The notes beneath the pieces were generated by a model, which saw nothing but the letters and a program-made list of their open reading frames with translations, made no database searches and was not told where the DNA came from. The translations under genes and the position numbers were made by a program. A stretch of DNA of 63,258 bases, counting the filler. It is 5 parts of 5 records of this genome, joined end to end, with 100 filler letters (N's around TTAATTAATTAA, not from the genome) between each part and the next. Parts side by side here need not be neighbours in the genome. Positions count along the whole stretch, not along the records: positions 46,775 to 63,258 come from SRR2962707_3585; 4 more parts are not named here. The stretch is one strand, 5' to 3'. This document shows, one piece after another, positions 10,189-63,258 of the stretch. The stretch's first letter is position 1; each line of letters starts with the position of its first letter.

Positions 10189-10288
10189 NNNNNNNNNNNN
10201 NNNNNNNNNNNNNNNNNNNNNNNNNNNNNNNNTTAATTAATTAANNNNNNNNNNNNNNNNNNNNNNNNNNNNNNNNNNNNNNNNNNNN
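10189..10288. other. Artificial contig linker
   Basis: 44 N + TTAATTAATTAA + 44 N (stops in all frames). Confidence 0.98.
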
Positions 10289-46541: not shown

Positions 46542-46560
46542 CTTAATAATCCGCTGTTAC

Positions 46561-46674
46561 ACCCCTCACCCGGCCCTCGTCCCGGGTTCTGGCCGGGACA
46601 TGCGCTACCCTCTCCCCAAGGAGAGGGGAAGTCGTGCGTGAGTTCCTTCTCCCTTGGGAGAAGGACAGGATGAG
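46561..46674. repeat. Inverted pair of CCCTCTCC/GGAGAGGG-type palindromic repeats, truncated by contig end
   Basis: CCCCTCACCC leader; hairpins CCCTCTCC-CCAA-GGAGAGGG (46608-46627) and CCTTCTCCC-TT-GGGAGAAGG (46645-46664); GGATGAG tail. Confidence 0.75.
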
Positions 46675-46774: not shown

Positions 46775-46802
46775 GGTATTGCGCAGCAATGTCCCGAGAG
46801 GG
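46775..46802 (-). repeat. ~41-bp hairpin element, copy A (partial)
   Basis: CCTCTCGGGACATTGC-TGC-GCAATACC follows orfB codons LVHS, where DQG would be expected. Confidence 0.7.
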
Positions 46803-47185
46803 GGAGTGTACCAGAACTTTGTTCGTTGGTTTGCGCCTCGAAACAGCAATCAGCAGCGCCTGCAATACGAGGTCTGTTGGTTGTCGGCTTTGCATCGACC
46901 ACCCCACGATACGCCGTGAAAAGAGATGGATCACAACCACCAGATATGAGAACCCTTCATGTGTTTTAACGTAGGTAATATCTGTTACCCAGGCGCTGTT
47001 GGGGGCTTGGACATCGAATTGACGATCCAAAGTATTATCGACAACGACTGATGGCTTGCCACCATACTTGCCGGGTCGACGTTTGTATCCGATTTGCGCG
47101 TGTATCCCAGCCAATCTGGCCAGTCGGTCCACACGGTTTGGACAACACGTCTCACCCAGATCGCACAGATCGTCGTGCAGTTTGC

Positions 47186-47226
47186 TCCTCTCGGGACATT
47201 GCTTTGCAATGCCCTGACGGCCAGTG
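47186..47226 (+). repeat. ~41-bp hairpin element, copy B
   Basis: TCCTCTCGGGACATTGC-TTT-GCAATGCCCTGACGGCCAGTG; removing it restores GGC TAT CGC AAA CTG (GYRKL) in orfB. Confidence 0.8.
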
Positions 47227-47452
47227 GATAGCCGTAAATGTTGCCACACTCTTCCCAAGCTTCTTTGAGTAGCTTTGTCTGGCGCTCATCTTCCAGCGCC
47301 CGATGGCTTAACGGATTTTTAACCCACGCATAAAATCCACTTGGATGAAGGCACAGGCAACGACACATCGCGCGAACCGAAAACAACGGACGATGCTCGA
47401 CGATAAACGCGTACCTCACTTTACATCCCTGGCGAAGTACGCGGCTGCCTTC

Positions 47453-48748
47453 CTAAGAAACAGTCATGTTTGGTCTGTGCAGGTAATTCTTGCAAATCAT
47501 ACCCGAATGACTTGGCCCGTCGCTTGAGATTGCCGAGCACGCGATTGCGGTATCTTTCCTCATAATGGGGGACGCGCCGGGGTCTCGATAGGTCATGCCG
47601 TGGCGCAGGGTGTTGTAGAACAGGACCGCGATCTTGCGTGCTGTGGCTGTGACTGCTTTGGCCTTACCCGCGCGCGCGGACAGTCGGCGGTAGAAAGCAC
47701 CCAAAGCAGTGTCACTCCGCCCAATCGTGACGGCTGCCAATCGCAAGAGAGCTGCGGCGCGGCTGGATGATCGCCGTGTTCGGGATGATAACACCTTTCC
47801 TCCAGATATCTTGTTGCCCGGTGCCAGACGGAGCCATGACGTGAAGTGTTTAGCACTTAGCCATGCGCGCAAATCAGTGCCGCATTCGCCAACCAGCTTG
47901 AGCGACAGAGACCGGCCCATCCCATGGATTTGCGTCAAATCAACCCCGAGAACGCCAAACAGCGCGGCCCGCCCGCAGGTCAAACGAAGGCGTACTGACC
48001 TGCTTGGTCTTGGTGCGCGGGCGCGGCAACTTGCTGGGATCATATTCAGTGTCCGAGCCTAATCCCGCCAGTGTCGCCTCAAGATGACGATCACATTCCA
48101 GCACCTTGGCCTGATAGAAGTCATAGAGTTCGAGCGACTGGGTCAGCGCGAAGATGTGTTCGGGACGATCATTTCCATTGAGTGCAGCTTTGATTGTCTC
48201 AGTTGAAACCTTGCAACGCACGTCACGATAGGAGGCCAACACGTCCAAATCCCGTTCGCCGACGACGATGCCGCAGATGATCTTCATCCCCGTAATATCC
48301 GTGATGTCAGACACAACATGATGCAGTTGGAGGTTCACCTCCATTGGTGCTTTCTGCATGTGTTGAATGGGGGCCGCTGCATATTCCACCAACCGTTCAC
48401 GTTGGCGCAGATAGTCTCGCAAGGTCGCAATCTCGGCCGTTGGTCGAAAGCTGCCGCGTAGCGAGCGTTGACCAGAATGACCTCAAAGCCGTGCTGCTCA
48501 AGTATCTCGTAAGCTGGGATCCAGTACACACCGGTGGATTCCTTCGCAACGCTGGTCACACCGTGTGATTTAAACCAATCGGCCAAATCGTGCAGATCAT
48601 GCGTGAACGTGCCAAACGCACGCACCGGTGCATCCGTCACCTCTGGGTTTACAGCCGCCATGTGTTCGCGTGAACCGATATCAACGGCGGCAGCGCCAAT
48701 GTTCACAGTCTCAATCGTCGAGATCTTGTGGGTCTTTTGCTTCGCCAT
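47453..48748 (-). pseudogene. IS110 transposase, frameshifted with an internal deletion
   Basis: Split across track ORFs 48335-48769, 47940-48422 and 47453-48043. Jumps from VNARYA to RGSFRP near 48455, losing the KTDxxDA segment. Confidence 0.85.
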
Positions 48749-48771
48749 CTTCTGTCCTCCTGTTAGCAACA

Positions 48772-48927
48772 GAAGGGCGTGGGCTATGCAAATCCGTCAT
48801 CTTCCTAACCGGGATCACCGCAAGGCGGTGTCACCACTCTCAAGTTCGCATCAGCCCATGGACCACGTTTTTTAACGGGGTTCTGCCCAAAGACAGACCA
48901 CCAATAAGCGAACGGCCGCTGCCCTTC
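48772..48927 (-). ncRNA. Candidate IS110 bridge RNA
   Basis: Outer stem GAAGGGC/GCCCTTC encloses two stem-internal loop-stem modules; the loops contain TTAAAAAA (target match) and TTAGGAAG (element-end match). Confidence 0.7.
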
Positions 48928-49342
48928 ATAGCGCAACACTAGCACAGGCTGTTTCTACCGCGCACAGGCGGGCCACAACCCGGAACGGTTTTTAAGATAT
49001 CGCGCTCCTCAGAGACGCGGGCCAGTTCCTTCTTCAAGCGTCTGCTCTCCGCAGCCTGTTCGGCGGTCTCGTTGATCTGCTTGCGCGGCTGCGAAAAATG
49101 CGCCTTCCACGTGTACAGTGATTTGGTGCTGATCCCTAATCGCTCCGACACCTCAGCTACTGAATATCCGCGATCCACCACTTGGGCGACCGCATCACGC
49201 TTGAACTCATCCGTAAATCTAATCCCTGACATCACTGCCTCCTTGCTTCCAAAATTACCAAGCAAGGCGTCTAGGAAACTAGGGGCTATTCACTTTGCCG
49301 GTGCAGGAAAATTTCTGATACCCAAAGCTTTCGGCCTTTGAA

Positions 49343-49356
49343 TTGAGATCAATCAA
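49343..49356. promoter_or_regulatory. FNR/FnrL/FixK-type box
   Basis: TTGAG-ATCA-ATCAA about 50 bp upstream of the ABC operon. Confidence 0.7.
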
Positions 49357-49404
49357 TCAGGTTCCAGCACGGATGTATATCTAGGACCCACCTAGGAGGC
49401 GCAT

Positions 49405-50112
49405 GTGGCAGAAGTCGTTTTTAAAACTGAAGGTGTTACCAAGGTTTACGAAACCGGTGACGTAAAGGTTTACGCGTTGGCTGGCGTCGATCTTGAACTG
49501 TTCAAAGGTGAGTTGACGGTTCTGCTTGGCCCTTCTGGCAGCGGTAAATCAACGCTTTTGAATATTCTTGGCGGACTGGATCATGCGACGGACGGGCGTG
49601 TTTGGTTCGATGGTACCGAACTGACCGACATGTCGGATCGTGGGTTGACCAAATACCGGCGTGATCACGTGGGCTTTGTTTTCCAATTCTACAATCTGGT
49701 ACCCAGCCTGACAGCGCGCGAGAATGTGCAACTGGTCACCGATGTTTCCCCCAACCCCATGCCCGCCGAAGAAGCCCTGACGCTGGTCGGTCTGGGCAAT
49801 CGGTTGGATCATTTCCCGTCCGAGATGTCGGGGGGTGAACAGCAACGTGTTGCCATTGCGCGGGCCATCGCAAAGCGCCCGCAGATCCTGTTATGTGACG
49901 AACCGACAGGGGCGCTGGACAGCAGCACAGGTGTGCAAGTGCTCGAGGTTTTACGCGATATCAACGAGCGCTTTGGCACCACCACCGTTGTCATCACCCA
50001 CAACGCCGAAATCCAGCGCATGGCGCATCGGGTGATCTTTTTCCAAGATGGTAAAATCAGCGAAACGCGGGTCAACAAGACACGAGTCGCCCCCTCAGAA
50101 ATCGTCTGGTAG
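49405..50112 (+). CDS. ABC transporter ATP-binding protein (LolD/MacB-like)
   Basis: [35 protein letters not shown]. Confidence 0.95.
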
Positions 50113-50117
50113 GTCAG

Positions 50118-52481
50118 ATGCAGGCAATAGACATCAAATTACTGCGCGATTTCAGGCGGCTTTGGCTACAGGCGGTTGCGATTGCTTTGGTGTTGGCCTG
50201 CGGCGTGGCGATCCTTTTGACGTCTGTCGGGATGTACAAGGCGCTGTCTGAAACGCGCACCGCCTATTACGAGCGCAACCGCTTTGCCGATATTTTTGCC
50301 CAAACCAGACGTGCGCCTTTGTCACTGCTGGCCGAAATTGCCCGCATCGATGGCGTGATGAGCGTCGAGACGCGGATTACCGGCGCTGCAACTTTGGATA
50401 TTCCCGGGCGAACCAGAACGGCTGTTGGAAAAGTTCTTTCCTACCCCGAAGACTCTGACCCGCTATTAAACCTTCCTTCTCTGGTAAAGGGTCGTTTTCC
50501 CGACCCTATCAGCACCAAAGAAATTGTGGTGAATGAACCCTTTGCAATCGCAAATGGTTTCAAGCTGGGTGACAGCTTTAGCGCCAATCTCAGAGGGCAA
50601 AAACGCACCCTGACGATCGTTGGCACCGCATTGTCGCCCGAGTTTGTCTATACTATCGGGCCCGGTGCATTGATGCCCGACAACGAGGCCTTTGGCATCA
50701 TCTGGATGCCTGAACGCGCAGCGGCTGCGGCGTATGATATGACGGGCGCGTTTAACGACGTCTCGATTGCGGTGGCATCCGGCATGACGACCGCGCCCGT
50801 GATTGACGCGCTTGACACGCTGCTGGAGCCTTTCGGCGGGCTGGGTGCCTATGACCGCACGACGCAGCAATCTGATGCGTTTCTGGACGCCGAGATCAAA
50901 CAGCTGAAAGGAATGGCTGCGATCTTGCCGCCGATCTTTTTCTTGATCTCGGGTTTTCTGGTCAGCATGGTAATGAGCCGGATCATCATGCTGGAACGCA
51001 GCGAGATCGGGCTGCTCAAGGCCATCGGATATTCAAACATCGAAATTTGCCTTCACTATCTGATGCTCGCTGCCTTGATTGCTGTTGTGGGCGTGGGTGT
51101 CGGATGGGTGGCCGGAACAATGCTGGCGCGGACAATGGCCTGGCAATATGCACAGTTCTTCGACTTCCCGTTTTTGATTTTCCGCGTGTCTTATTGGGTC
51201 TATGCCGCGTCAGGATTAGCAGCCCTGCTGACCACCAGTCTTGGGGCCACACAAGCAGCCCTCAAGGCCGCAAGGCTGGCCCCCGCGATCGCCATGCAAC
51301 CCCCTGCCCCGCCCCGGTTCAAGCGGTCGTTCATTGACGACGCGATGGCGCATATGCGGCTGTCGCAATCCACTGTCATGATCTTGCGTTCGCTCTTGCG
51401 CTGGCCGCTGCGCAGTTTTTTGACATCCTTGGGTCTGGCGCTGGCTGTTGCGTCGGTCGTCTCGTCGACCTTTATCAACGACGCCCTTACCGAGATCGTC
51501 GATATGGCGTTTTACCAAACCAACCGGCAAGACGCGATACTGCTGTTTGCCGATGACCTACCCGAAGCGGTTCTGGAAGACGTGCGCCACCTACCAGGTG
51601 TATTGCAGGCAGAAAGCCAGCAGTTTCACGCCGCTATTTTGCGCAACGGCCATCTGACCAAGCGTGTGGCGGTTGAATCGCGGCGCCCCGGTAATGATCT
51701 GAGCAGGGTGCTGGATGCAGATGGCAACCCGCTGGATGTGCCCGCAAACGGCGTTGTCTTGTCAAAACGGCTTGCAACCCACCTTGATGTGAAGCCCGGT
51801 GAAAACGTCGATATAGAATTCCTGACCGGCCGTCGCGAGACATTTAGCGTCACAGTCACTGCACTGGTCGAACAGCACTTCGGCTTGGGGGCATATATGA
51901 ACCTCGAGTATCTGAACGCGCTTTTCAGGCAGGCACCACGTGTTTCCACGGTGAACATCACGCTGGACACGGATCAATCAGACGCGCTCCATGCTGCGGT
52001 CAAAAACACGCCGCACATCGCCGGCATCGTCGAGATGAACGAAAACCGCCGGTCGTTCGAGAACACGATCGAGGAAAACATAGTTGTCATGAACACGATC
52101 TACATCGTGGTGGCCGTGCTGATCACAATCGGAGTGACCTATAACGCGGCCCGCATCCAGCTGTCGGAGCGCGCGCGCGAACTGGCCAGCCTGCGCATCC
52201 TTGGCTTTGGACGCGGCGAGGTCTCCTATATTTTGGTGGGTGAAATGATGCTAATCGCATTGGTGGCGCAGCCCTTTGGCTGGCTGATTGGTGCGGGGAT
52301 CGCCCAACTGATGACCAGCGCCTTTACCAGCGATCTTTATGCAATCCCGCTGGTTCTGGAACCGTCGACATTCGCACTTGCCAGTCTTGTTGTGTTGGGC
52401 GCCGCGCTTGCGTCCGTGATGATCGTACGCCGTCGGCTGGACCGGCTTGATCTGGTTTCTGTCATGAAAACGAGGGAATGA
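50118..52481 (+). CDS. FtsX-like ABC transporter permease
   Basis: Duplicated permease layout with ERSEIGLLKAIGY and ERARELASLRILGF; 787 aa. Confidence 0.92.
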   Translation: MQAIDIKLLRDFRRLWLQAVAIALVLACGVAILLTSVGMYKALSETRTAYYERNRFADIFAQTRRAPLSLLAEIARIDGVMSVETRITGAATLDIPGRTRTAVGKVLSYPEDSDPLLNLPSLVKGRFPDPISTKEIVVNEPFAIANGFKLGDSFSANLRGQKRTLTIVGTALSPEFVYTIGPGALMPDNEAFGIIWMPERAAAAAYDMTGAFNDVSIAVASGMTTAPVIDALDTLLEPFGGLGAYDRTTQQSDAFLDAEIKQLKGMAAILPPIFFLISGFLVSMVMSRIIMLERSEIGLLKAIGYSNIEICLHYLMLAALIAVVGVGVGWVAGTMLARTMAWQYAQFFDFPFLIFRVSYWVYAASGLAALLTTSLGATQAALKAARLAPAIAMQPPAPPRFKRSFIDDAMAHMRLSQSTVMILRSLLRWPLRSFLTSLGLALAVASVVSSTFINDALTEIVDMAFYQTNRQDAILLFADDLPEAVLEDVRHLPGVLQAESQQFHAAILRNGHLTKRVAVESRRPGNDLSRVLDADGNPLDVPANGVVLSKRLATHLDVKPGENVDIEFLTGRRETFSVTVTALVEQHFGLGAYMNLEYLNALFRQAPRVSTVNITLDTDQSDALHAAVKNTPHIAGIVEMNENRRSFENTIEENIVVMNTIYIVVAVLITIGVTYNAARIQLSERARELASLRILGFGRGEVSYILVGEMMLIALVAQPFGWLIGAGIAQLMTSAFTSDLYAIPLVLEPSTFALASLVVLGAALASVMIVRRRLDRLDLVSVMKTRE

Positions 52482-52485
52482 ACAA

Positions 52486-53697
52486 ATGGCCCATTCAACA
52501 CGTACACTTGTACTGATCGGCATCGGGGTCACGCTTGTGGCCGGGCTGTCTTATTTCAGTTTCCGCACCGATCCCGTTGCTGTCGATCTGGCAACGGTCA
52601 CCCGAGGGCCGCTTGAGGTGACCATAAATGCGGATGGCCAGACGCAGGTGCGTGATCTGTTCGAAGTCGCCTCGCCGATCATAGGGACAGCGATGCGGTC
52701 ACCCGTCGCCGAGGGGGATAGCGTGCGCAAAGGCGAAACTGTCGTTGCGATTGTAAAGCCGTCTTCGGCGGGGTTGCTGGACGCGCGGGCACAGCTTCAG
52801 GCAGAGGCCGCGTTGCAAGAGGCAACAGCCGCGCGGCTGGTTGCCCAAGCCGATCTGAAACAGGCCGAGGAAACAGCGCATTTTGCACAGTCGCAATTTG
52901 AAAGAACGCAGGCGCTGGTGACACGCGGCGTTGCCTCTGTCACCCGGTTGGAAGATGCCACCCAAAGTCTGGCCGTCGCGAATGCCACGATTGAGGCGGC
53001 TCAAGCACGGATCGAGATGGCAGATGGCGCAATTGAACGGGCGCGCGCCAGTCTGTTGCCCCCTGAAAGTAGAAACGTCACCCCGGATAGCTGCTGTGTC
53101 CAGTTGACAGCCCCTGCGGACGGGGTTGTTTTATCGGTTGCTGCCATCAGCGAACGGCCCGTGTCCATCGGGACGCCTTTGGTTGGCATTGGCGATCCTG
53201 GCCAGCTTGAACTGGTGGCCGACATTTTGTCGAATGATGCCGTGCGCCTGAAACCCGGTGCCTTGGCCTATGTCGAGCGTTGGGGCGGCGAAGAGGTGTT
53301 GGAGGCAAGGCTTGACCGGATCGACCCCAAAGCGCGCACAAAGATTTCGGCGCTTGGGATCGAAGAACAGCGTGTTGATGCGTATTTCCAGCTGGTCAGC
53401 CCCATAGAAAACCGTCCTAGCCTTGGGGATGGGTTTTCGGTCTTTCTGCGGGTTGTTGAATGGCGTGCCGAGGATGTCTTGCAAATTCCGCTAAGCGCCG
53501 CCTTTAGAAATGACACGGGCTGGGCGGTGTTTGTGGATTTGGACGGGGTCGCTGAAAAGCGGGCCGTTACACTGGGCCGGCGCAACGACCGCATGGTCGA
53601 GGTGATACAGGGGTTGGAGTTCTCCGAACATGTTGTCACGCACCCCAGCGACGCGATTGCCGCCGGTGTGGCACTGGTGGAAAGGTCGCAGCTATGA
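52486..53697 (+). CDS. HlyD-family periplasmic adaptor subunit
   Basis: N-terminal TM, EGDSV lipoyl half, helical hairpin, APADGVV, ISALGIEEQRV. Confidence 0.92.
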   Translation: MAHSTRTLVLIGIGVTLVAGLSYFSFRTDPVAVDLATVTRGPLEVTINADGQTQVRDLFEVASPIIGTAMRSPVAEGDSVRKGETVVAIVKPSSAGLLDARAQLQAEAALQEATAARLVAQADLKQAEETAHFAQSQFERTQALVTRGVASVTRLEDATQSLAVANATIEAAQARIEMADGAIERARASLLPPESRNVTPDSCCVQLTAPADGVVLSVAAISERPVSIGTPLVGIGDPGQLELVADILSNDAVRLKPGALAYVERWGGEEVLEARLDRIDPKARTKISALGIEEQRVDAYFQLVSPIENRPSLGDGFSVFLRVVEWRAEDVLQIPLSAAFRNDTGWAVFVDLDGVAEKRAVTLGRRNDRMVEVIQGLEFSEHVVTHPSDAIAAGVALVERSQL

Positions 53698-55345
53698 GCA
53701 CCGAACAAGTCGACCCGCGCGGGCTCGATGCATATTGGCACTCAACACTTGGGCGGTTAACGTGTGGCCTGTCCTCTGCGGCCCTGACCACGGCATATGT
53801 CGATTGGTTGATGCACATGGCGGGGTCCCCGAGAAGCGATTTCAACAGGCCAGACAAGTCATGGCGCACAAGGCCCCGGCCGAGGTGGGACCCGACCCGA
53901 GGTTCTCTGACGCGGTGTGGAAACGTTTCTCATTCAACGTCTATGCACAACAGTTTCTGGCAGCCCAAAACTGGTGGGACCTTGCGACGACGGATGTCCC
54001 CGGTCTTGAGGTCAAACATGTGCAGATCGTCAATTTCGCCGCACGGCAGTGGATTGATATGATCTCGCCCTCAAACTTTGCCATGACGAACCCACAGGTG
54101 CAGGTGCGCACACGGGAGGAGCTTGGGCAGAACCCGATGCGCGGTGACCGCTATCGGATCGAGGATTTCAACCGGTTGCTAACCAAGCTGCCGCGCAAAA
54201 CAAGTGAATATACCGTCGGCCAAGACTTGGCAGCGGCTCCCGGCGATGTCATTTTACGAAATGAACTAATCGAATTGATCCAGTACCGGCCGACAACCGC
54301 CAAACTACGGCCCGAACCGATCCTGATCGTTCCCGCCTGGATCATGAAATATTACGTGCTGGACCTGACCGCGCAGCAGTCGCTGGTGACATATCTGCGA
54401 GATCAGGGTTTCGAAGTCTTCATCATATCGTGGAAGAACCCCGATAATGGCGACGCGGAATTGTCGATGCAGGACTATGTCGAGCTGGGGATGCGTGCCG
54501 CCATCACCAAGATCAAGCAACTGGGGCATGACCGGCTTCATACAGCATGCTATTGTCTGGGCGGTACTCTTTTGGCCATCGTCGCGGCTGCAATGGCACG
54601 GGATCACGATGACAGCCTTGCAAGCAGCAGCCTGCTTGCGGCCCAAGTGGATATTTCCGAACCCGGCGAGTTGGGGTTGTTCATCAACGAAAGCCAGGTG
54701 GCCTTTCTGGAAGACATGATGGCGACGCAAGGGTATCTCAAGGCGGACCAGATGGCCGGGGCATTCCAGTTGCGCCGCTCGAACGATCTGATCTGGAGCC
54801 GCGTTATACGCCATTACCTGCTGGACGAACGCACACATGCCAACCCGCTGATGGCATGGAACGCTGACGCCACCCGCATGCCGGCGGGGATGCATTCGCA
54901 ATACCTGCGGCACTTGTTCTTGGGAAACGAGCTGGCCAAGGGGCAGTTCAAAGTGGACGGCACCACCATCGCGCTAAGCGACATCCGCGCCAAGATATAC
55001 TGTCTGGCCACGGTGACGGATCACGTATCACCGTGGCAATCTGTTTACCGGCTGTCGTTGCTGACAGACACGGATGTGACGTTTGTTTTGACAAACGGCG
55101 GGCATAACGGTGGCATTTTGTCGGAACCCGGCCACGCGGGTCGGCATTTTCGCTGCGGGCACAAGGCCGAAGGCAACGCGCATACCGCAGCATCGGACTG
55201 GTTTGAAAAGCACCAACCCCGCGATGGTTCGTGGTGGCCAAATTGGGTGCAGTGGTTAAACAAACGCAGTAGTCCAGCCAGAAATCCGCGGGCTGCCGAT
55301 TTTGATGTATTAGATGCCGCGCCCCGTCGCTATGTCATGGGCTGA
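53694..55345 (+). pseudogene. phaC: Class I PHA synthase with an apparent 1-nt frameshift near 53832
   Basis: N-terminus (RLTCGLS...AYVDW...GSP) is in one frame; the rest (SPSNF, PAWIMKYY, YCLGG, DHVSPW, GGH) is in another. Confidence 0.8.
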
Positions 55346-55458
55346 GGTCAGGTGAGTTACGCCATGCTGAAATTTCACCACGGGATTGGTCGCGCTCAGG
55401 CGGCCACCAGACGTCTGCCGGATGCCAGACCCCAAACCCTGATAGTTGAGGCACACCA

Positions 55459-58035
55459 GTGACCGAAATTGCGCGACAGACCGGTTTAACAGCGCAAGAG
55501 GCCCTTGCCGCGCGGCAAATCCACGGCTGGAATGAACTGCCTGTGGTGGCGCGATCCGGTCCGTTTCGGGTATGGTTGCGCCAATTCTCCAGTTTCCTTG
55601 TACTGATCCTGATCATCGCTGCCGCCATCGCGCTTGCCTTGGGTGAAAGGGTCGATGCGATCACAATCGGTCTTGTGGTCATGTTAAACGCCACATTGGG
55701 ATTTGTTCAGGAATGGAAGGCAGAAACCGCCCTCGCATCCTTGCGAAAAATGCTGTCCCCCCAAGCAATGGTGCTGCGCGATGGTCAGGAACAAATGATC
55801 CCGGCCCGCGACATTGTACCCGGCGATATCCTTGTGCTCGCGCCCGGTGCAAAGGTGGCAGCCGACGGGGTCGTGGTTCGCGCTGCGGAACTACAGGTCG
55901 ATGAAAGTGTCCTGACCGGTGAATCCGTGCCAGTTGCCAAGGATGGCACAGAAAGCGGGCGGGACCTATTTGCCGGAACGTCTGTCATCGCCGGGCGGGC
56001 AGAAGCGCGGGTTACAGCCACCGGTGCAAATACCGAATTCGGCAAGATTGCACATCTGACAGGATCGGTTGGGCCAAAGGCAACGAACCTGCAAAACAAG
56101 CTGGGCCAACTCGCCCGTCAACTGGGCGCAGCCGCGCTGCTTGTTGCAGCCGCGGTCACAGGGCTGGGCTTACTGCTGGGGCGTGATCTGACCGAAATGG
56201 TGATGACGGGGCTTTCTTTGTCTGTCGCAATGGTGCCCGAAGGTCTGCCCGCGGTGGTCACGATCACACTTGCACTTGGGGCCGCAGCAATGGTGCGCCG
56301 GAACGCCTTGGCGCGCCATTTGCAGGCCGTCGAAACGCTGGGTGCCGCTTCGGTCATTTGTACGGACAAGACCGGCACGCTGACCGAAAACAAGATGACC
56401 GCGACGCAGGTCTGGACGATGGATCGCACCTATGACGTCACCGGAACAGGCTATGATCCCGCCGGACATATCGCAGTTGACGGGGCACGTCTGCGCGCAG
56501 CGGATGATCCTGTGCTTTCCGCGCTTTTGCAAGTTGGGCTTTATTGCAGCCATGCCCATCTGAAACACGAAGGTGATCACTGGCAAATGACTGGTACCCC
56601 TACCGAAGGGGCGCTGATTACCCTTGGCTACAAAGGTTGGTGCGACCTGCCCAATGAACGCGGCTTGCTGGCTGAAATCCCGTTCAGCAGCGCGCGCAAG
56701 CGGATGTCGGTGTTGTATCAATCGGAAAACGAGACATCGGTATTGACCAAAGGCGCGCCCGAACAAGTGCTTGAAGTGTGTACTCAGGTCATGACCCAAA
56801 CCGGTGTGCGACCACTGCAACCCGCAGATCATGACACTATTTCACAAGCCTTTCAGCACCTCGCAGAAAAAGGGTTGAGGGTAATCGGCCTTGCCCGCCG
56901 GGTCGCAACCACGCAGCAGATGACCGAGGAAGGGCTGACATTTCTAGGTTTGGTCGGCTTGATCGACCCCCCAAGATCCGAGGTGCGCGACGCAATTTCG
57001 CTCGCAAGGGCGGCGGGGATCAAAGTCATCATGATCACCGGCGACAGCCCCATCACGGCGGGTGCGATCGCGAACCAGTTGTCGTTGAGCGTAACCCGGC
57101 ACTTGACCGGCGCTGATCTTGATAAACTGGACGACGCCGAGCTTGATGATCTGTTGCAAGGCGAGGTCCTGTTCGCACGTACCAAGCCCGAACAGAAGAT
57201 GCGCATCGTTTCCGCGCTGCAAGCGCAGGGTCAGATCGTTGCAATGACCGGCGACGGGGTGAACGACGCCCCCGCCCTGAAACAGGCCGACATTGGCGTG
57301 TCGATGGGGATCAGAGGAACCGATGTGGCCCGTGACGCCTCTGATCTGGTGCTGCTGGACGACAATTTCGCAACCATCGTCCGCGCCATCGGCGAAGGTC
57401 GGCGCCAGTTCGCCAATGTTCAGAAATTCGTCCGCTATCTGTTGTCATCCAATGCCGGCGAAGTCGTCGCCTTGGTCGTCAACATTGCCATTGGCGGCCC
57501 GCTTGTATTCCTTGCCACGCAAATTTTGTGGATGAATCTTGTTACCGACGGCGTGACAGCGGTTGCACTGGGGTTGGAAAAATCGGAACCCGACCAGATG
57601 CGTCAAAGACCCCGTCGCAAAGATACCCCGATCCTTGGCGTCAGCGGCGTCGTCACCATCCTTGTTTTGGGAACCTATACCGGCCTGTCGAGCCTCTGGA
57701 TATTTTTTCATCTGATGGATTTCGGGGTCGAACTGGCGCGGACTACAGGCTTCACTGGCATGGTGGTTTTTGAAAAAGTTAGCGTTTTTGCCTTCCGTTC
57801 TTTGCGTCTGCCTAGCTGGAAAATTGGGTTGTTCAGCAACCCGTTTTTGTTGCTGGCGCTGACCGTTACATTGGGCGCTCAGGTACTGGCCATCTACTGG
57901 CCGCCCTTGCAAACGCTTTTACACACCGTCCCGATGGGGCGCGACGAATGGGCTTTGATTGCCGTATTTGCGCTTCCTATCCTTGTGGTGCCCGAAGTGT
58001 TCAAGGCTTTGGGGCTCGGGCTTCAACGCGCGTAA
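55459..58035 (+). CDS. Cation-translocating P-type ATPase (type IIA, Ca2+-like)
   Basis: TGES, PEGLP, DKTGT, KGAPE, TGDGVNDAPAL, ILWMNLVTD. Confidence 0.95.
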   Translation: MTEIARQTGLTAQEALAARQIHGWNELPVVARSGPFRVWLRQFSSFLVLILIIAAAIALALGERVDAITIGLVVMLNATLGFVQEWKAETALASLRKMLSPQAMVLRDGQEQMIPARDIVPGDILVLAPGAKVAADGVVVRAAELQVDESVLTGESVPVAKDGTESGRDLFAGTSVIAGRAEARVTATGANTEFGKIAHLTGSVGPKATNLQNKLGQLARQLGAAALLVAAAVTGLGLLLGRDLTEMVMTGLSLSVAMVPEGLPAVVTITLALGAAAMVRRNALARHLQAVETLGAASVICTDKTGTLTENKMTATQVWTMDRTYDVTGTGYDPAGHIAVDGARLRAADDPVLSALLQVGLYCSHAHLKHEGDHWQMTGTPTEGALITLGYKGWCDLPNERGLLAEIPFSSARKRMSVLYQSENETSVLTKGAPEQVLEVCTQVMTQTGVRPLQPADHDTISQAFQHLAEKGLRVIGLARRVATTQQMTEEGLTFLGLVGLIDPPRSEVRDAISLARAAGIKVIMITGDSPITAGAIANQLSLSVTRHLTGADLDKLDDAELDDLLQGEVLFARTKPEQKMRIVSALQAQGQIVAMTGDGVNDAPALKQADIGVSMGIRGTDVARDASDLVLLDDNFATIVRAIGEGRRQFANVQKFVRYLLSSNAGEVVALVVNIAIGGPLVFLATQILWMNLVTDGVTAVALGLEKSEPDQMRQRPRRKDTPILGVSGVVTILVLGTYTGLSSLWIFFHLMDFGVELARTTGFTGMVVFEKVSVFAFRSLRLPSWKIGLFSNPFLLLALTVTLGAQVLAIYWPPLQTLLHTVPMGRDEWALIAVFALPILVVPEVFKALGLGLQRA

Positions 58036-59060
58036 TAATATGCGACAAGGCTTGCGAGGAACGTGATCAGCACAAGGATTGAATCCAGCCCGAATACGCC
58101 AATCCGCAGCTTGCGCCGGACAATCAATCCGATCAGGTAAATCGCTGTCACAGTCAGGCCGAACCCCAACGCAAGGCTGACCATACGGGATGTGTTTTGC
58201 AATATCGGCCCCGAACGAAAAAGGATGTCGGCAGGGAAAACCAGAACCAACATGATCAGATTGCTGCCAAATATGTTCGAGATGGCCAAAGTATAGGCCC
58301 CGATACGCACCGCCGCGATGCTGGTGCTTAGTTCGGGAAGCGACGTCGCCGCAGCCAGTAACGTAACCCCGATGAAGCCCGTGCCAAGACCGGATCGATC
58401 AGCAATGCGTTCGGCAAACAAGACCAGCAACAGTCCGAAAACCAAAATCACGATACACGCAGCAATGGCTTGCCAGATCAGGCTTTTGTTTGCTGTCTGC
58501 GCCAGACCTGAGGGGGCCGGAAAGGCAAGCGGATCAGGGTCTGGCAGATCAACGGGGACCCAATCACTGTTGTCATCATAGCGGCGCAATAGCCAAATCG
58601 CCCCGACATAGACCGCAGCAATGGCTATACTGCCAAAGCCCACGCCTGAAATGACAAATGTCTCGCCCAGATTGGTGATGACCAAGGTCACGGACAGCAG
58701 CAGCACCAGCAACGTGGCCTCTAGCGCGTGGTTTGCCTTGCGCGGATAATTTGTAATCGGCCCGCGTGCTCCGAAATCTGCCATCGCCAAAATCGCCGTC
58801 TGAAGCGCAATGCCTCCGAAAAGGTTGTTCAAAACCAGGTCACGAGATTGTTGTACCGCAGCGGAAAGCGTCGTCGCGACCTCTGGCAGGGATGTTGCCA
58901 GTGACAAAAGCAATAGGCCGACAATAGATTTGGCCAGCTTGAACCGGTCTGACAGGGCATCTGCCAGATAAGCCAGCCTCGCACCCGCAATCCAAACGCA
59001 ACCCGCGCTTAGGGTGAATAAAATCAAGCTTTGTATCAGGGACGTGACCGGGATTTGCAT
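58023..59060 (-). CDS. Sodium:calcium antiporter (CaCA family)
   Basis: ATSLPE twice, NNLFGG, SNIFGSN; multiple TM helices. Confidence 0.9.
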   Translation of the reverse strand: MQIPVTSLIQSLILFTLSAGCVWIAGARLAYLADALSDRFKLAKSIVGLLLLSLATSLPEVATTLSAAVQQSRDLVLNNLFGGIALQTAILAMADFGARGPITNYPRKANHALEATLLVLLLSVTLVITNLGETFVISGVGFGSIAIAAVYVGAIWLLRRYDDNSDWVPVDLPDPDPLAFPAPSGLAQTANKSLIWQAIAACIVILVFGLLLVLFAERIADRSGLGTGFIGVTLLAAATSLPELSTSIAAVRIGAYTLAISNIFGSNLIMLVLVFPADILFRSGPILQNTSRMVSLALGFGLTVTAIYLIGLIVRRKLRIGVFGLDSILVLITFLASLVAYYYAR

Positions 59061-59093
59061 CACTGCTATCTAGCAAATTATCGCATCTTTGCT

Positions 59094-59107
59094 TTGACAT
59101 GGCTCAA
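59094..59107. promoter_or_regulatory. FNR-type box
   Basis: TTGAC-ATGG-CTCAA between the antiporter and the divergent protease remnant. Confidence 0.55.
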
Positions 59108-59208
59108 TTCAAATATGGTGTGGGGGGCAAGCTTGAAGGCCCTTTTTGAGCGATGCCAATTCGCCGCGACGCTTTCGCGTTAGGTTCAAAGCATATTAGG
59201 AGCCTGCT

Positions 59209-59279
59209 ACATTCTCAAATGCTGTGAAGCTATTTTCCATCAATGGGTTCGACATCAAGGTCGATCCCAGCTGGCTAAT
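59209..59279 (+). pseudogene. 5' remnant of a site-2 protease (M50) family gene cut by an IS3
   Basis: After an AGGAG RBS it reads FSNAVKLFSINGFDIKVDPSWL, a typical S2P N-terminus; no intact ATG; ends at the IS boundary. Confidence 0.55.
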
Positions 59280-60361
59280 TGAGCTTCCCCTGAAATTCGG
59301 ACACTGACGTAAGCTACGATTTGTTGTCTGCTGACCTTCAACACGAAGGAGATCAGAAATGTCGAAACGGAAGCAACATCATCCAGAGTTCAAGGCCAAG
59401 GTCGCGTTAGGGCTTAGAAAGGGGAAGAGACGGTCAGCGAACTGGCAAGCCGGTTTAGGGTGCATCCCACGATGATCCACCACTGGCAACGAACTTTGTT
59501 GGAAGGCGCGTCAGGCGTATTTGAGCGTGGCGGTCGCAAGGCACCAGAAGTCTATGAGGGGCAAGTTAAAGACCTGCACGCCAAGATCGGAGAGTTGGCC
59601 GTCACCAATGATTTTTTGGCCAGAAAGCTCAAACCCTGGACCGGCAAGTGAGGCGCAAGATGATCGAACGCGCCAATACCAACCTGTCCGTCGGGAAGCA
59701 GTGCAAGCTGTTGTCGATCTCGCGGTCATCATTTTACTACGAGCCCAAGGGTGAAAGTGAGATGAACCTCGTCCTGATGCGCGTGATTGATAGGCAGTTT
59801 CTGGAAACCCCGTTTTACGGCGTGCGTCAGATGACCTGGCACCTGCGCAATGACGACCACCCCGTTTACGAAAAGCGGATCAGACGCCTGATGCGGCTGA
59901 TGGGATTGATGCCGATCTATCAAAAGCCAAATACCAGCAAGGCTGCAAAGGGACACAAGATTTACCCTTACTTACTGCGTGGCCATCATGGACTGGCACA
60001 CCCGCAAGGTTCTGGCGTGGCGTATCTCGATTGACGGAAAAAGGCCGCTTTCTAACCTCTCGGGATCGTGCGGCGCATAACCCTGCCGGGCAACAGATCA
60101 ACATCTTTGTTGAGCGACTGTGGCGGTCGCTAAAATATGAATGCGTCTACTTACACGCCTAGGAAACCGGAACAGAGGCCAAGGCTGGCGTTAGAAAATG
60201 GATCGAGTTCTACAATCACAAACGGCCACATTCCGCTCTTGGTGGGCAACCACCTGCCGTGGTCTATTGGCAAAGGAATGAAACTCCAAACCCCGATCAG
60301 CAGGTGCAAAAAGTAGCTTAATTTACGTCAGAATCTGTCCAATAAATGGGGGGGTAGCTCA
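59280..60361 (+). mobile_element. Degenerate IS3-family element
   Basis: Ends TGAGCTTCCCC / GGGGTAGCTCA; orfA MSKRKQHHPEFKAKVAL is frameshifted; orfB has deletions and a TAG after ERLWRSLKYECVYLHA. Confidence 0.9.
60055..60095 (+). repeat. ~41-bp hairpin element, copy C
   Basis: ACCTCTCGGGATCGTGC-GGC-GCATAACCCTGCCGGGCAACA sits between the GRFL and NIFVERLW codons of orfB. Confidence 0.7.
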
Positions 60362-60422
60362 GTTGGGGCTGTCACTGGGTGATCGCGACTAATATCGCCT
60401 CACAGCCATCGCAAAAACAATC

Positions 60423-60455
60423 AAACGCCACGATGATATCAAGCTAGTGGCGTTT
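60423..60455 (-). terminator. Putative intrinsic terminator
   Basis: AAACGCCAC/GTGGCGTTT stem just after the DUF2267 stop, with a T-rich tail on the minus strand. Confidence 0.55.
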
Positions 60456-60464
60456 TCTTTGGCC

Positions 60465-60896
60465 TTATGGTTGGGGCCACAGGTCGCGGATCTTTTCTGA
60501 CAGGGTGGCGCGAACATCTTCAACTTCACCAATGCTAAGACGGTTGTTCAACACATCGAAAACGCATTTGATATCCTCGCGCCCCCGGAATTCGGCTGTT
60601 TCGCTCATCTCGGCTGCGATGAAGGCCACGAATTCTTCGGCACTGCGTTCTTTGACCGGGGTTTTCTTTGGCACCCAGCCTTCAAAAAAGAACCCCCGTA
60701 TCAGCACAGGTAATTGCGCAGAAAACTGTGCCAGTTCGTCAACCACCAGATGATCCCGCAAGTGGTGCAGTGTCACCCGCAAAAGGCGCAGTACGCTGCG
60801 TTTTGAAGACCAATCAAGTCGATCTGCCAGTTCATTGATCCATTCGTGAGTCACATGAACGCTGTTGTCGATTACTTCCAAACCTTGGGCCGTCAT
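60465..60896 (-). CDS. DUF2267 domain protein
   Basis: THEWINEL...LRVTLHHLRDHL...AQLPVLIRG.FFEGW.P...GEVEDVRATL...RDLW. Confidence 0.88.
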   Translation of the reverse strand: MTAQGLEVIDNSVHVTHEWINELADRLDWSSKRSVLRLLRVTLHHLRDHLVVDELAQFSAQLPVLIRGFFFEGWVPKKTPVKERSAEEFVAFIAAEMSETAEFRGREDIKCVFDVLNNRLSIGEVEDVRATLSEKIRDLWPQP

Positions 60897-60916
60897 TTAT
60901 CTTCTCCTAATTCAGG

Positions 60917-62098
60917 TCAGTTGCTGAGTGGTTTCTGATCGGCATCCAATGCAGCGCCGGAATTGCCGAGCAGTGAATGCAAAACCGGGCGCGCCATTGC
61001 CCCGATGCCAAGTAAAACCAACGTGAAATTTGCCGCCCAGCCGATGAAGGGAATAAAATTCAGCAGGCCAACAAAGAGCAGCGCAGCCGCGAAAACCAGC
61101 AAGCGCGTAATATTATTGGGGTCGGTTGCACCGCCGAAACCCATCAAAAGCCGCATTGCGATGCTATAGGCACCCAACGCATAGCCCAGCGTCCAGGCGA
61201 CGATGATCGCCAGCAGTACGACAGGAACAAAGGGAATGCCCACGATGGTCATGGCAGTGATCGGCACCATGCCGAACAACACCGACAAACCAAGCACGCC
61301 CAGAAGAAAGATTTTGCCAGGGGCCTCTGTCACACTGCGGCGCATTTTCGACAAGCGGTTGGGCATAAAGCCCAACATCAAGGCACCAAGCACCAGGAAG
61401 AAAAGGATCGAGATCACGAAGGCAAAAAAGACGGACATGAATGTTGGGAAAGCGGGCATGTCTTTGCCCATATCCTGCCATTCCTCCCAGACATGGCCGT
61501 TTGAAATTTTCTCATATGACACGCGTTCAGCAGCGGCGACCCGATCGGGAATAGTGATCTTTTCCTTGGTGCTATACGTCAACGTGCCAGAGATGACTGC
61601 ATCGGGTCCAAACGACAGCGTTTGCGCCAGAATACGTGCATCGCCATTGATCGCAGCATTCAAGATGACGTCACTCCCTATCACGGACAACGCACCCTCA
61701 ACCGGTCCTTCAATCGTAACCGTGTTGCCCAGAAGGCGGGCGTTCCCTTGTGTCAAAGAGCCGGTCTCGGTTCGTAAGGAAAACCCCGCGGCAGTCAGAT
61801 CCTGCGCGACGGTGCTGCGGATCACCACGGCACCACCCAAAGCATAAAGATCCGCGAACACATCCGTGCCGACCGAAACATCAAACCCTGCAACATGCAG
61901 GTCACCCTGCGAGGCCCCGTTCACCTTGACCGCGCGTGCCGCCATAAAGGTGTCACCCGCCGTATCCACCGCTTGACTAAGCTGTGATCCGGCAAAAAAT
62001 GTATCCTTACCGTTTCTGATAGAAACTGTATCTGCCAAACAGGCCGTAGAAAGCCCGAGCGCAGTAATCGCCGCCAATACGTTTGTGAAAGTGAACAT
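60917..62098 (-). CDS. Exported beta-helix (bactofilin-like) domain fused to a multi-TM membrane domain
   Basis: Signal peptide, repeated GD[L/T]xxxG.xV units, then about six hydrophobic helices (TIVGIP, IPFIG). Confidence 0.75.
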   Translation of the reverse strand: MFTFTNVLAAITALGLSTACLADTVSIRNGKDTFFAGSQLSQAVDTAGDTFMAARAVKVNGASQGDLHVAGFDVSVGTDVFADLYALGGAVVIRSTVAQDLTAAGFSLRTETGSLTQGNARLLGNTVTIEGPVEGALSVIGSDVILNAAINGDARILAQTLSFGPDAVISGTLTYSTKEKITIPDRVAAAERVSYEKISNGHVWEEWQDMGKDMPAFPTFMSVFFAFVISILFFLVLGALMLGFMPNRLSKMRRSVTEAPGKIFLLGVLGLSVLFGMVPITAMTIVGIPFVPVVLLAIIVAWTLGYALGAYSIAMRLLMGFGGATDPNNITRLLVFAAALLFVGLLNFIPFIGWAANFTLVLLGIGAMARPVLHSLLGNSGAALDADQKPLSN

Positions 62099-62160
62099 GA
62101 AAAAGTTCCTTCAAAGGGTTCTGATTACCCCATTGGATAATTGAAAACCCGAAAACCCGA

Positions 62161-62174
62161 TTGACTGGGATCAA
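62161..62174. promoter_or_regulatory. FNR-type box
   Basis: TTGAC-TGGG-ATCAA centred between divergent genes starting at 62098 and 62240. Confidence 0.75.
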
Positions 62175-62239
62175 TTCAATCTTTCGAAGCTCCGCTAAAG
62201 TTTATTCGAGGATAGAATTTACCAACAAGGAGTGAACGC

Positions 62240-63079
62240 ATGGGACTGAAGACAATATTGGTCTGTCTGACCACCCTGGAGAATACCGAAACACTGTTGA
62301 AGGTAGCAGTCCCTTTGGCGCGCAAACACAACGCACATCTGATCGGATTACACACGGTCGAAGCGTTGTTGGTTTATCCAGGCATCGCCATGCATATCCC
62401 CGAACCGGCATTTGCCACGTTTAACGCGAGTCAGAAAAAAGTATCCGAAGCGATAAAAAAGGTCTTTGCAAAATACACGACGCCAGAAGATTTCGTGAGC
62501 GAGTTCCGGTTGGTCCGGGCCGAATCCTCATCTGCCGGCGAACGGATGATTGAATGCGCCCGTGCGGCTGATCTGGTGATCATGGCGCATGAAGACAAGG
62601 AAAACGATCGGTATGACCAGCGGCATGTCCAGACTGAGGTGATCCGCGAAAGCGGTCGCCCCGTTGTGATTGTTCCGTTGAATTACGATGGCCCCGAGAT
62701 CGGGAAAAACCTCCTGCTGGGCTGGAGCGACACGAGAGAAGCGGCCCGCGCCGCCCATGATTTGCTGGGGCTGGCTGATCCCGGTGCAAACCTGACAGTC
62801 TTGCGAGTTGGTAAGGCCCGCCAAGACCCTTTGAAGGACGGGGATGCCATTGATGTCGTCGAAATGTTTGCACGTCATGGTCTGAAATCCACGCTGGAGT
62901 ATCGTGAACAATCGGGTAGCAGCGTTGCCGATATCCTGAACAAGGCGGCTTTTGAAAATGGGGCAGACCTTATTGTGACTGGTGCTTTTGGCCACTCTCG
63001 GACCTATGATTTTGTCATTGGTGCAACCACCTATGCGCTGCTGCGTGATCAAAAAGTGCCGATCATGTTCAGCAAATAG
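62240..63079 (+). CDS. Universal stress protein (tandem USP domains)
   Basis: KTILVCL, ADLVIM, SGRPVVIVP, W.DTREAARA, GAFGHSR...GATT...VPIMFS. Confidence 0.93.
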   Translation: MGLKTILVCLTTLENTETLLKVAVPLARKHNAHLIGLHTVEALLVYPGIAMHIPEPAFATFNASQKKVSEAIKKVFAKYTTPEDFVSEFRLVRAESSSAGERMIECARAADLVIMAHEDKENDRYDQRHVQTEVIRESGRPVVIVPLNYDGPEIGKNLLLGWSDTREAARAAHDLLGLADPGANLTVLRVGKARQDPLKDGDAIDVVEMFARHGLKSTLEYREQSGSSVADILNKAAFENGADLIVTGAFGHSRTYDFVIGATTYALLRDQKVPIMFSK

Positions 63080-63196
63080 CCGCAGCGAAAAGATTGTCGG
63101 GCCATCTTGTTAGATGGTCCGATGCCCTCCGTGTAGCTGGCCGGATCACCGTCAAGCTTGGCCAAGTGGATGCAGGGGCGTAATTCACCTGTCCGA

Positions 63197-63210
63197 TTGA
63201 GCGATCTCAA
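63197..63210. promoter_or_regulatory. FNR-type box upstream of the next, unseen gene
   Basis: TTGAG-CGAT-CTCAA perfect palindrome. Confidence 0.55.
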
Positions 63211-63258
63211 TCAAAGCGCCATGCAATGTGTAGATATGTACGGACTCTCGGGACACTT

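Follow-up and report, generated by a model that had tools for sequence, protein, structure and literature searches.

A small hairpin element inside insertion sequences of Rhodobacterales

The REP (repetitive extragenic palindromic) sequences and their doublets, the REPINs, are the described systems closest to the element analysed here. The likeness (PMC8266576; PMC3333891; 10.1101/279083) extends to small size, an imperfect hairpin with a conserved mismatch zone, the absence of target duplication, the absence of genes and the presence of many copies. In the long REPs of group 2, a bulged stem is required for cleavage by TnpA-REP (PMC8266576), and by analogy it is this group that the element would most resemble in its working. 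The element, a tiny hairpin located almost always inside the genes of insertion sequences (ISs), was identified in a stretch of 63,258 nucleotides (the window), which consists of five contigs joined by N-linkers (at 10189, 32329, 37575 and 46675). The finding is confined to positions 46775-63258.

Parts of the same description apply to other systems. The non-autonomous IS200/IS605 derivatives share a one-sided target preference, the lack of duplication and a hairpin with an unpaired base (10.1101/279083). Palindromic inserts within coding sequences, as in the present case, are also formed by the Rickettsia palindromic elements (RPE), of about 105-146 bp, and by the intragenic CGTC/GTAG repeats, both of which lie in frame in working genes (PMC3733652; PMC3184786).

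Copies in the window and the family as a whole

The three hairpin copies reported by a sequence-only reading of the window are all present. They are located in two IS3-family elements, as follows.

46775..46802, minus strand: copy A, the first 28 bases of the hairpin element, truncated by the contig end (covariance model and sequence reading)
47186..47226, plus strand: copy B, a complete 41-bp element lying antisense within orfB of IS3 element 1
60055..60095, plus strand: copy C, a complete 41-bp element with the second type of core, lying sense within orfB of IS3 element 2
46775..49293, minus strand: IS3-family element 1, in which A and B lie (boundary on the right set by eye)
about 49265-48990, minus strand: orfA of IS3 element 1, whose orfB extends to the contig end
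59287..60365, plus strand: IS3-family element 2, host of C, decayed, with two internal deletions and a stop codon (boundaries approximate)

The 10-mer CCTCTCGGGA occurs exactly three times in the window, once in each copy. A covariance model recovers B with an E value of 8.5e-14 and C with 7.8e-11, both being among its 50 training rows, and the contig-end-cut A with 0.006; the match ranking next in the window has E 1. At site B, an intact Mesorhizobium IS3 is exactly 41 bp shorter and the junction is clean and duplication-free, as had been proposed from the excision of this copy, and a relative in run X3 carries 5 letters where site B has 46. Copy C amounts to 42 bp net against an intact IS3 of Phaeobacter inhibens, comprising the 41-bp element and a single additional base immediately within the right flank. 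Copy A, in sense orientation, interrupts the HSD motif of IS3 element 1 directly after its His-Ser codons. The segments are not native to IS3 genes, since the intact relatives are without them, and the view of A, B and C as true inserts in IS3 stands, with the correction that A and B share one element and C lies in a second. The sites are also occupied elsewhere, that of A in L076, that of B in a Shinella plasmid and that of C in Sulfitobacter D7, the latter two each with a different core.

A scan of the genome collection gives at least 124 loci, and among the 80 titles listed most belong to Rhodobacterales; copy B has matches in 48 plasmid records. With 40 candidates scored per genome, the covariance model finds matches in 65 of 150 other genomes from the family of one carrier genome, G003, and in 3 of 150 others from its class, while five genomes searched more deeply yield 7 to 92 matches each (E up to 1). 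Over all loci fetched, 551 distinct copies were collected, a convenience sample biased toward the first search pattern. A length of 41 bp, at first taken as fixed, is found in 307 of these copies, the remainder falling within 34-46 bp, and the supposed restriction to IS3 gives way to copies in at least 11 IS families. A loose pattern built from the ends only was tried on five genomes and abandoned, its matches being mostly due to chance; among those listed, two new palindromic copies were gained.

Both ends of the element are fixed, CCC-TCTC on the left and TGCC-GGG followed by a 5-base tail on the right. In the best 513 copies, the tail is CAGTG in 188, CAATG in 116, CAGCG in 66 and CAACG in 51. 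The core between the ends is a variable palindrome, lengthening and shortening symmetrically, and 288 different cores are present among these 513 copies. Across 50 hand-picked copies, 95.3% of 600 cells are paired, against 30-43% in slid controls, with two-sided changes in 8 of 12 stem pairs, the outer foot included; the structure model derives from the same 50 sequences. The fold has a foot of 3 bp and a 4x4 internal loop, followed by a short stem, a frequent bulged base and a variable tip. The stem is longer than was described in the first reading, bases 1-3 pairing with bases 34-36 across the 4x4 internal loop. Single copies fold modestly (z of -2.2/-2.4 for B, not significant for C), so that covariation, and not energy, makes the case for the structure.

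Rfam returns no match over copies A-C with E up to 5, and no family at gathering score. No description of the family was found in the literature, subscription journals and ISfinder lying outside the search, and a term search for three motifs gave no match in four supplements of PMC3733652. The family is real and widespread, an apparently undescribed variant among small hairpin mobile elements, and stands out by living nearly exclusively in mobile and repeated DNA.

Insertion junctions and genomic positions

The base 5' of the element is C in 376 of the 513 copies (73%). On the 3' side, the successive bases are G in 406, A in 314 and T or C in 413, giving a loose C↓GAY site (the arrow marks the insertion point). 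A 4-base target duplication is seen in 1 of 513 copies and a 5-base duplication in 0 of 513; these counts, together with the comparison of B and C with intact relatives, bear out the proposal of a tiny non-autonomous element that inserts without target duplication.

The junctions themselves were compared with empty homologues, present for 129 of 252 copies tested, and comprise 82 clean cases, 27 that are one base short, 14 with one extra base and 6 others. In the short junctions, the loss occurs at the left C-run. Most of the 14 additions are an A or a G placed two positions into the target. The extra base is repeated in different inserts at one site and also occurs out of frame, which argues for a product of the mechanism and not of selection; frame-restoring selection as its source is ruled out, 4 of the 14 cases being out of frame. 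Net insert length is a multiple of three at 20 of the 129 junctions, and most inserts are frameshifting. The flanking base covaries with the element, in counts that are uncorrected for shared ancestry: an A before the element coincides with a T at the foot in 22 of 54 cases, and a G there accompanies an altered tail in 12 of 19. This is the pattern expected of a guide-like contact.

In a density control made with variants outside the reach of the search pattern, in 83 loci, 45 copies are found in 81.8 kb of IS DNA, 1 in 69.5 kb of non-coding DNA and 0 in 191 kb of other open reading frames (ORFs), where the candidate sites number 3332, 2570 and 8327, respectively. The density is about 0.5 inserts/kb in IS DNA and 0.014/kb in adjacent non-coding DNA, a roughly 38-fold difference, and IS blocks without a searched copy still contain 7 inserts in 15.5 kb. 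The suspected enrichment in IS DNA is strong; the accompanying suggestion, that the element survives only where it is harmless, leaves the low density in neighbouring non-coding DNA unexplained.

The flank frames with Pfam hits (48 of 134 and 30 of 125) are IS genes in every case. Among 99 locus frames, the 25 with Pfam hits comprise 22 transposases, 1 phage-type integrase and 2 host genes adjoining intergenic copies. By homology-only classing, 246 of 310 and 243 of 302 candidates are inside IS genes, the 302-candidate set including about 20 stemless chance matches. The host families are IS3, IS5 (several groups), IS481-like, IS256, IS110, IS21, IS630, IS1595, IS6, IS66, IS91 and Tn3. The element is sense to its host gene in 246 copies and antisense in 190, and these 436 classed copies fall at 304 sites. 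The two largest hot spots hold 19 and 10 copies, with 17 and 5 cores, and both presumably coincide with the first catalytic Asp of IS5-family enzymes. Some genomes have a core set of their own, spread across unrelated IS families, and lineage-specific sets are present in G254, G167 and G128.

Most exceptions outside ISs are situated in other repeats, namely rRNA spacers, REP-like repeats and other copies of the element. Related hairpins occur in the 16S-23S spacers of at least four genomes (called by Rfam, and by eye in L361), with diverged tails and distinct from the IS copies of the same genome. In the spacers L213, L217, L098 and L361, up to three such hairpins each are arranged around the tRNA genes in both directions, and some are embedded in longer stems. 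A 34-bp minimal hairpin lies within an intergenic composite repeat of G003 (L189:1563 and L190:1569), in one case between rfbB-like and rfbD-like genes. In the phage contigs L397, L408 and L412, a C5 DNA methylase gene is interrupted by three different cores near one place (L397 by eye), and in L400 and L403 a RelE-type gene is interrupted by a hairpin (L400 by eye).

Within IS3 element 1, one further element is nested.

47451..48989, minus strand: decayed IS110-family element nested in IS3 element 1 (Pfam PF01548 and PF02371)

It is hairpin-free, and relatives in runs X2, X3 and X5 are without it (joint 47450-48989). The X2 contig covers A and B with 30 differences and no gap and lacks the nested IS110, so that both inserts are older than the latter. 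The non-coding end of the IS110 (about 48770-48989) may harbour a bridge RNA. At the other contig end, a fourth copy at 63243-63258 was considered and rejected as a probable IS end; the surrounding 63224-63258 is probably the terminal repeat of another IS, and 11 of its bases are common with the left part of the hairpin. The 22-kb contig of the window has a G+C content of 34% and the other contigs have 54-57%, which makes an origin of all contigs from a single genome unlikely. Genome G001, probably the counterpart of the AT-rich contig, gave no match.

Known systems and the search for a mobiliser

Like the REPs mobilised by RAYT enzymes, the element has an imperfect hairpin within 20-65 bases and a conserved bulge, but no GTAG or GTGG is found 0-2 bases 5' of the hairpin foot on either strand. 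On one strand, host flank takes this position; on the opposite strand, the complement of the CARYG tail does. REPs are mainly extragenic, whereas the element interrupts genes of ISs; REPs are accompanied by a cognate, flanked tnpA-REP gene (the REPtron), and none was found for the element; REPINs are doublets, whereas the element consists of single units with fixed ends. With IS200/IS605 derivatives it has in common the absent duplication and the one-sided target, but those carry a pair of subterminal hairpins and use a strict tetra- or pentanucleotide, against one hairpin and a target conservation of 51-79%. It further differs in being one-base imprecise at about a third of junctions, and the hairpins of resident IS200 elements are unrelated. 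Its asymmetric ends and single case of 4-base duplication set it apart from the miniature inverted-repeat transposable elements (MITEs), and its mostly frameshifting insertions in mobile-element genes from RPE. The attC sites of integrons also act as folded single strands, in which the outer stem is short, the spacer stays unpaired, one base is extrahelical and the tip varies. The fold is similar, but the element has no GTTRRRY core, cassette array or adjoining integrase. The small dispersed repeats (SDR) of Nostoc, from Elhai et al. in 2008, are said to be tiny structured mobile repeats of about 21-27 bases, cyanobacterial and with no known mobiliser; by that description they are similarly small and structured, but shorter and from another group of bacteria.

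A HUH or RAYT gene flanked by the motif, as the first reading had envisaged, was not found in the carrier genomes searched, which are a sample and possibly incomplete. Y1 transposases (PF01797) are present in 5 of 21 carrier genomes (2/5 and 3/16), and no examined locus is flanked by the element; the Y1 genes of G003 and of a second carrier, G005, are IS200-type, with unrelated hairpins. For RAYT, NF047646 is above the cut-off in 1 of 5 genomes and is flanked there by unrelated GTAG REPs. DUF559 matched in 1 of 12 genomes and GIY-YIG in 12 of 12, the latter mostly as long UvrC-sized frames, with small stand-alone genes in G128 alone. One copy of the element lies ~650 bases from a small GIY-YIG gene, within another repeat, and was not counted as evidence. 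Inverted pairs of copies were also rejected as gene-flanking pairs, since they are IS3 or IS5 inserts wherever classed. Either an enzyme of another class is at work, or the copies in many carriers were inherited on ISs.

Two arrangements of other repeats were encountered in G128. At L344:1300-1800, a small GIY-YIG gene stands between inverted CGTC-type palindromic repeats in a REPtron-like manner. PMC3733652 describes CGTC repeats as lacking a dedicated transposase, and GIY-YIG is in this light a candidate mover of these repeats. At L331:1348-1474, a DUF559 gene carries CCCTCTCCC-type hairpins at its 3' end; a hairpin array of the CCCTCTCCC kind occupies the end of the preceding contig in the window (46560-46674).

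Maintenance in the IS pool and rival readings

Insert-bearing IS copies are shown to continue multiplying. In the draft assembly of G005, one and the same frameshifting insert is present in 8 of 8 close IS5 copies, which occupy different places and have few differences among them; the next relative is 69% identical. In that of G003, also a draft, 8 close IS5 copies and 6 of 6 close IS91 copies have the insert. Single ISs often hold several inserts, already broken copies gaining more. The proposal of a transposon-silencing role is weakened by both the several inserts per IS and the multiplication of their bearers. In 15 same-genome pairs of ISs sharing an insert, mismatches amount to 3.0% and 1.7% in the first and next 10 flank positions and to 12-15% beyond 30, while 33 between-genome pairs show no mismatch dip near the insert. 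This pattern is suggestive of recombination between IS copies near the insert.

The reading preferred here, to which about an even chance is given, is that of a gene-less, single-hairpin REP-like element that parasitises the IS pool of Rhodobacterales and is maintained by hitch-hiking and recombination. In the first step, an enzyme would read the folded single strand through its 3-bp foot, 4x4 internal loop and bulged base, as HUH transposases do with REPs. The folded strand would be joined into one target strand and the other filled by repair synthesis, which would sometimes slip one C at the left junction or add an untemplated base two positions into the right flank. In the second step, of which the multiplying copies show a part, the insert would travel with an IS mobilised in trans, and recombination, most easily at conserved catalytic motifs, would transfer it from one diverged IS copy to another. 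Movement in trans and recombination would together lead to accumulation in repeated mobile DNA and to loss at unique sites.

Several observations weigh against this reading. The Y1, RAYT, DUF559 and GIY-YIG searches of carrier genomes found no mobiliser, and a strict tetranucleotide target is missing (C 73%, G 79%, A 61%, T 51%). Copies are also present in non-repeated DNA, in the phage methylase and RelE genes and at a few intergenic sites. The 15 pairs represent 10 site clusters in 7 genomes, of which about 6 display one-sided mosaicism with a breakpoint 20-40 bases from the insert, the rest being uninformative, and the mismatch rate at a distance is inflated by misaligned stretches, for which reasons the Poisson p-value of this signal is discarded. 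Neighbouring inserts rarely have a common core (5 of 279 pairs), and local hopping is accordingly rejected. Finally, 246 of the 304 sites are singletons, so that new insertion may itself prefer IS DNA.

The main rival, in view of these many singleton sites and the almost empty non-coding DNA, is that IS or repeated DNA is recognised directly. A host or element system would recognise such DNA, for instance through strands displaced by repeat pairing, and insert the hairpin as a transposon defence, which is considered doubtful. The idea draws on the densities given above, including those of IS blocks without a searched copy, on the frame shifts caused by most inserts and on the genome-specific core sets across unrelated IS families. 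It also draws on the in-phase Asp sites, at least 37 of 77 of which fit the patterns of what we take to be catalytic motifs, the corresponding figure for the eligible Asp codons of two intact IS3 genes being 3 of 19, but this excess comes largely from the two hot spots. Further inserts are, however, collected by IS copies that are already broken, insert-bearing ISs still stand at 6-8 copies per genome, and no targeting component or guide was found. A repeat-directed form of the idea is somewhat less probable: a structure-reading nuclease would insert the hairpin into DNA paired with a homologous copy, breaking the transposase genes of every family. Were this true, it would be a bacterial counterpart, by insertion, of fungal repeat-induced point mutation.

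Three further explanations rank as less likely because of the points that oppose each. Random insertion at C↓GAY, followed by purifying selection that clears non-dispensable DNA, would make special machinery unnecessary and agrees with the empty 191 kb of other ORFs and with the copies in dispensable phage genes. It is nevertheless improbable, since the 2570 non-coding candidate sites hold 1 copy where the 3332 IS sites hold 45, and since hairpins are tolerated in intergenic DNA where they are present. Through reverse transcription, structured RNA pieces such as rRNA-spacer hairpins would be copied and joined into DNA. The related hairpins in 16S-23S spacers point in this direction, as do the extra bases and one-base losses, untemplated bases and one-base slips being typical of reverse transcriptases; but the spacer copies have tails unlike those of IS copies in the same genome and lie in both directions within an operon, and the IS preference is left unexplained, which makes this route slightly less probable again. 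Least probable of all is a reversible switch, in which the insert would be precisely removed from DNA or RNA or bypassed in translation to leave a functional transposase: entire IS families per genome bear inserts, and the assembly contains no closely related intact copy; hot spots coincide with conserved motifs, as do inteins; and between copies that have an insert in common, silent differences (157) outnumber replacing ones (127), in crude frames. Both orientations are common, however, about a third of the junctions are imprecise, draft assemblies may be missing intact copies, and a silent excess would be expected if the IS copies had diverged before they received the insert.

In the sampled neighbourhoods, there is about one insert per 2 kb of IS DNA, so that many of the transposases called 'broken' in this abundant marine lineage have a common cause. 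Few mobile units with defined ends are as small as these elements, and since they fall outside the REPs, the IS200/IS605 derivatives and the MITEs, they may be moved by a single-strand enzyme that has so far gone unrecognised. With the bias toward mobile DNA, a standing question becomes testable, namely whether insertion sequences as a class are recognisable to bacteria or to parasites of parasites.

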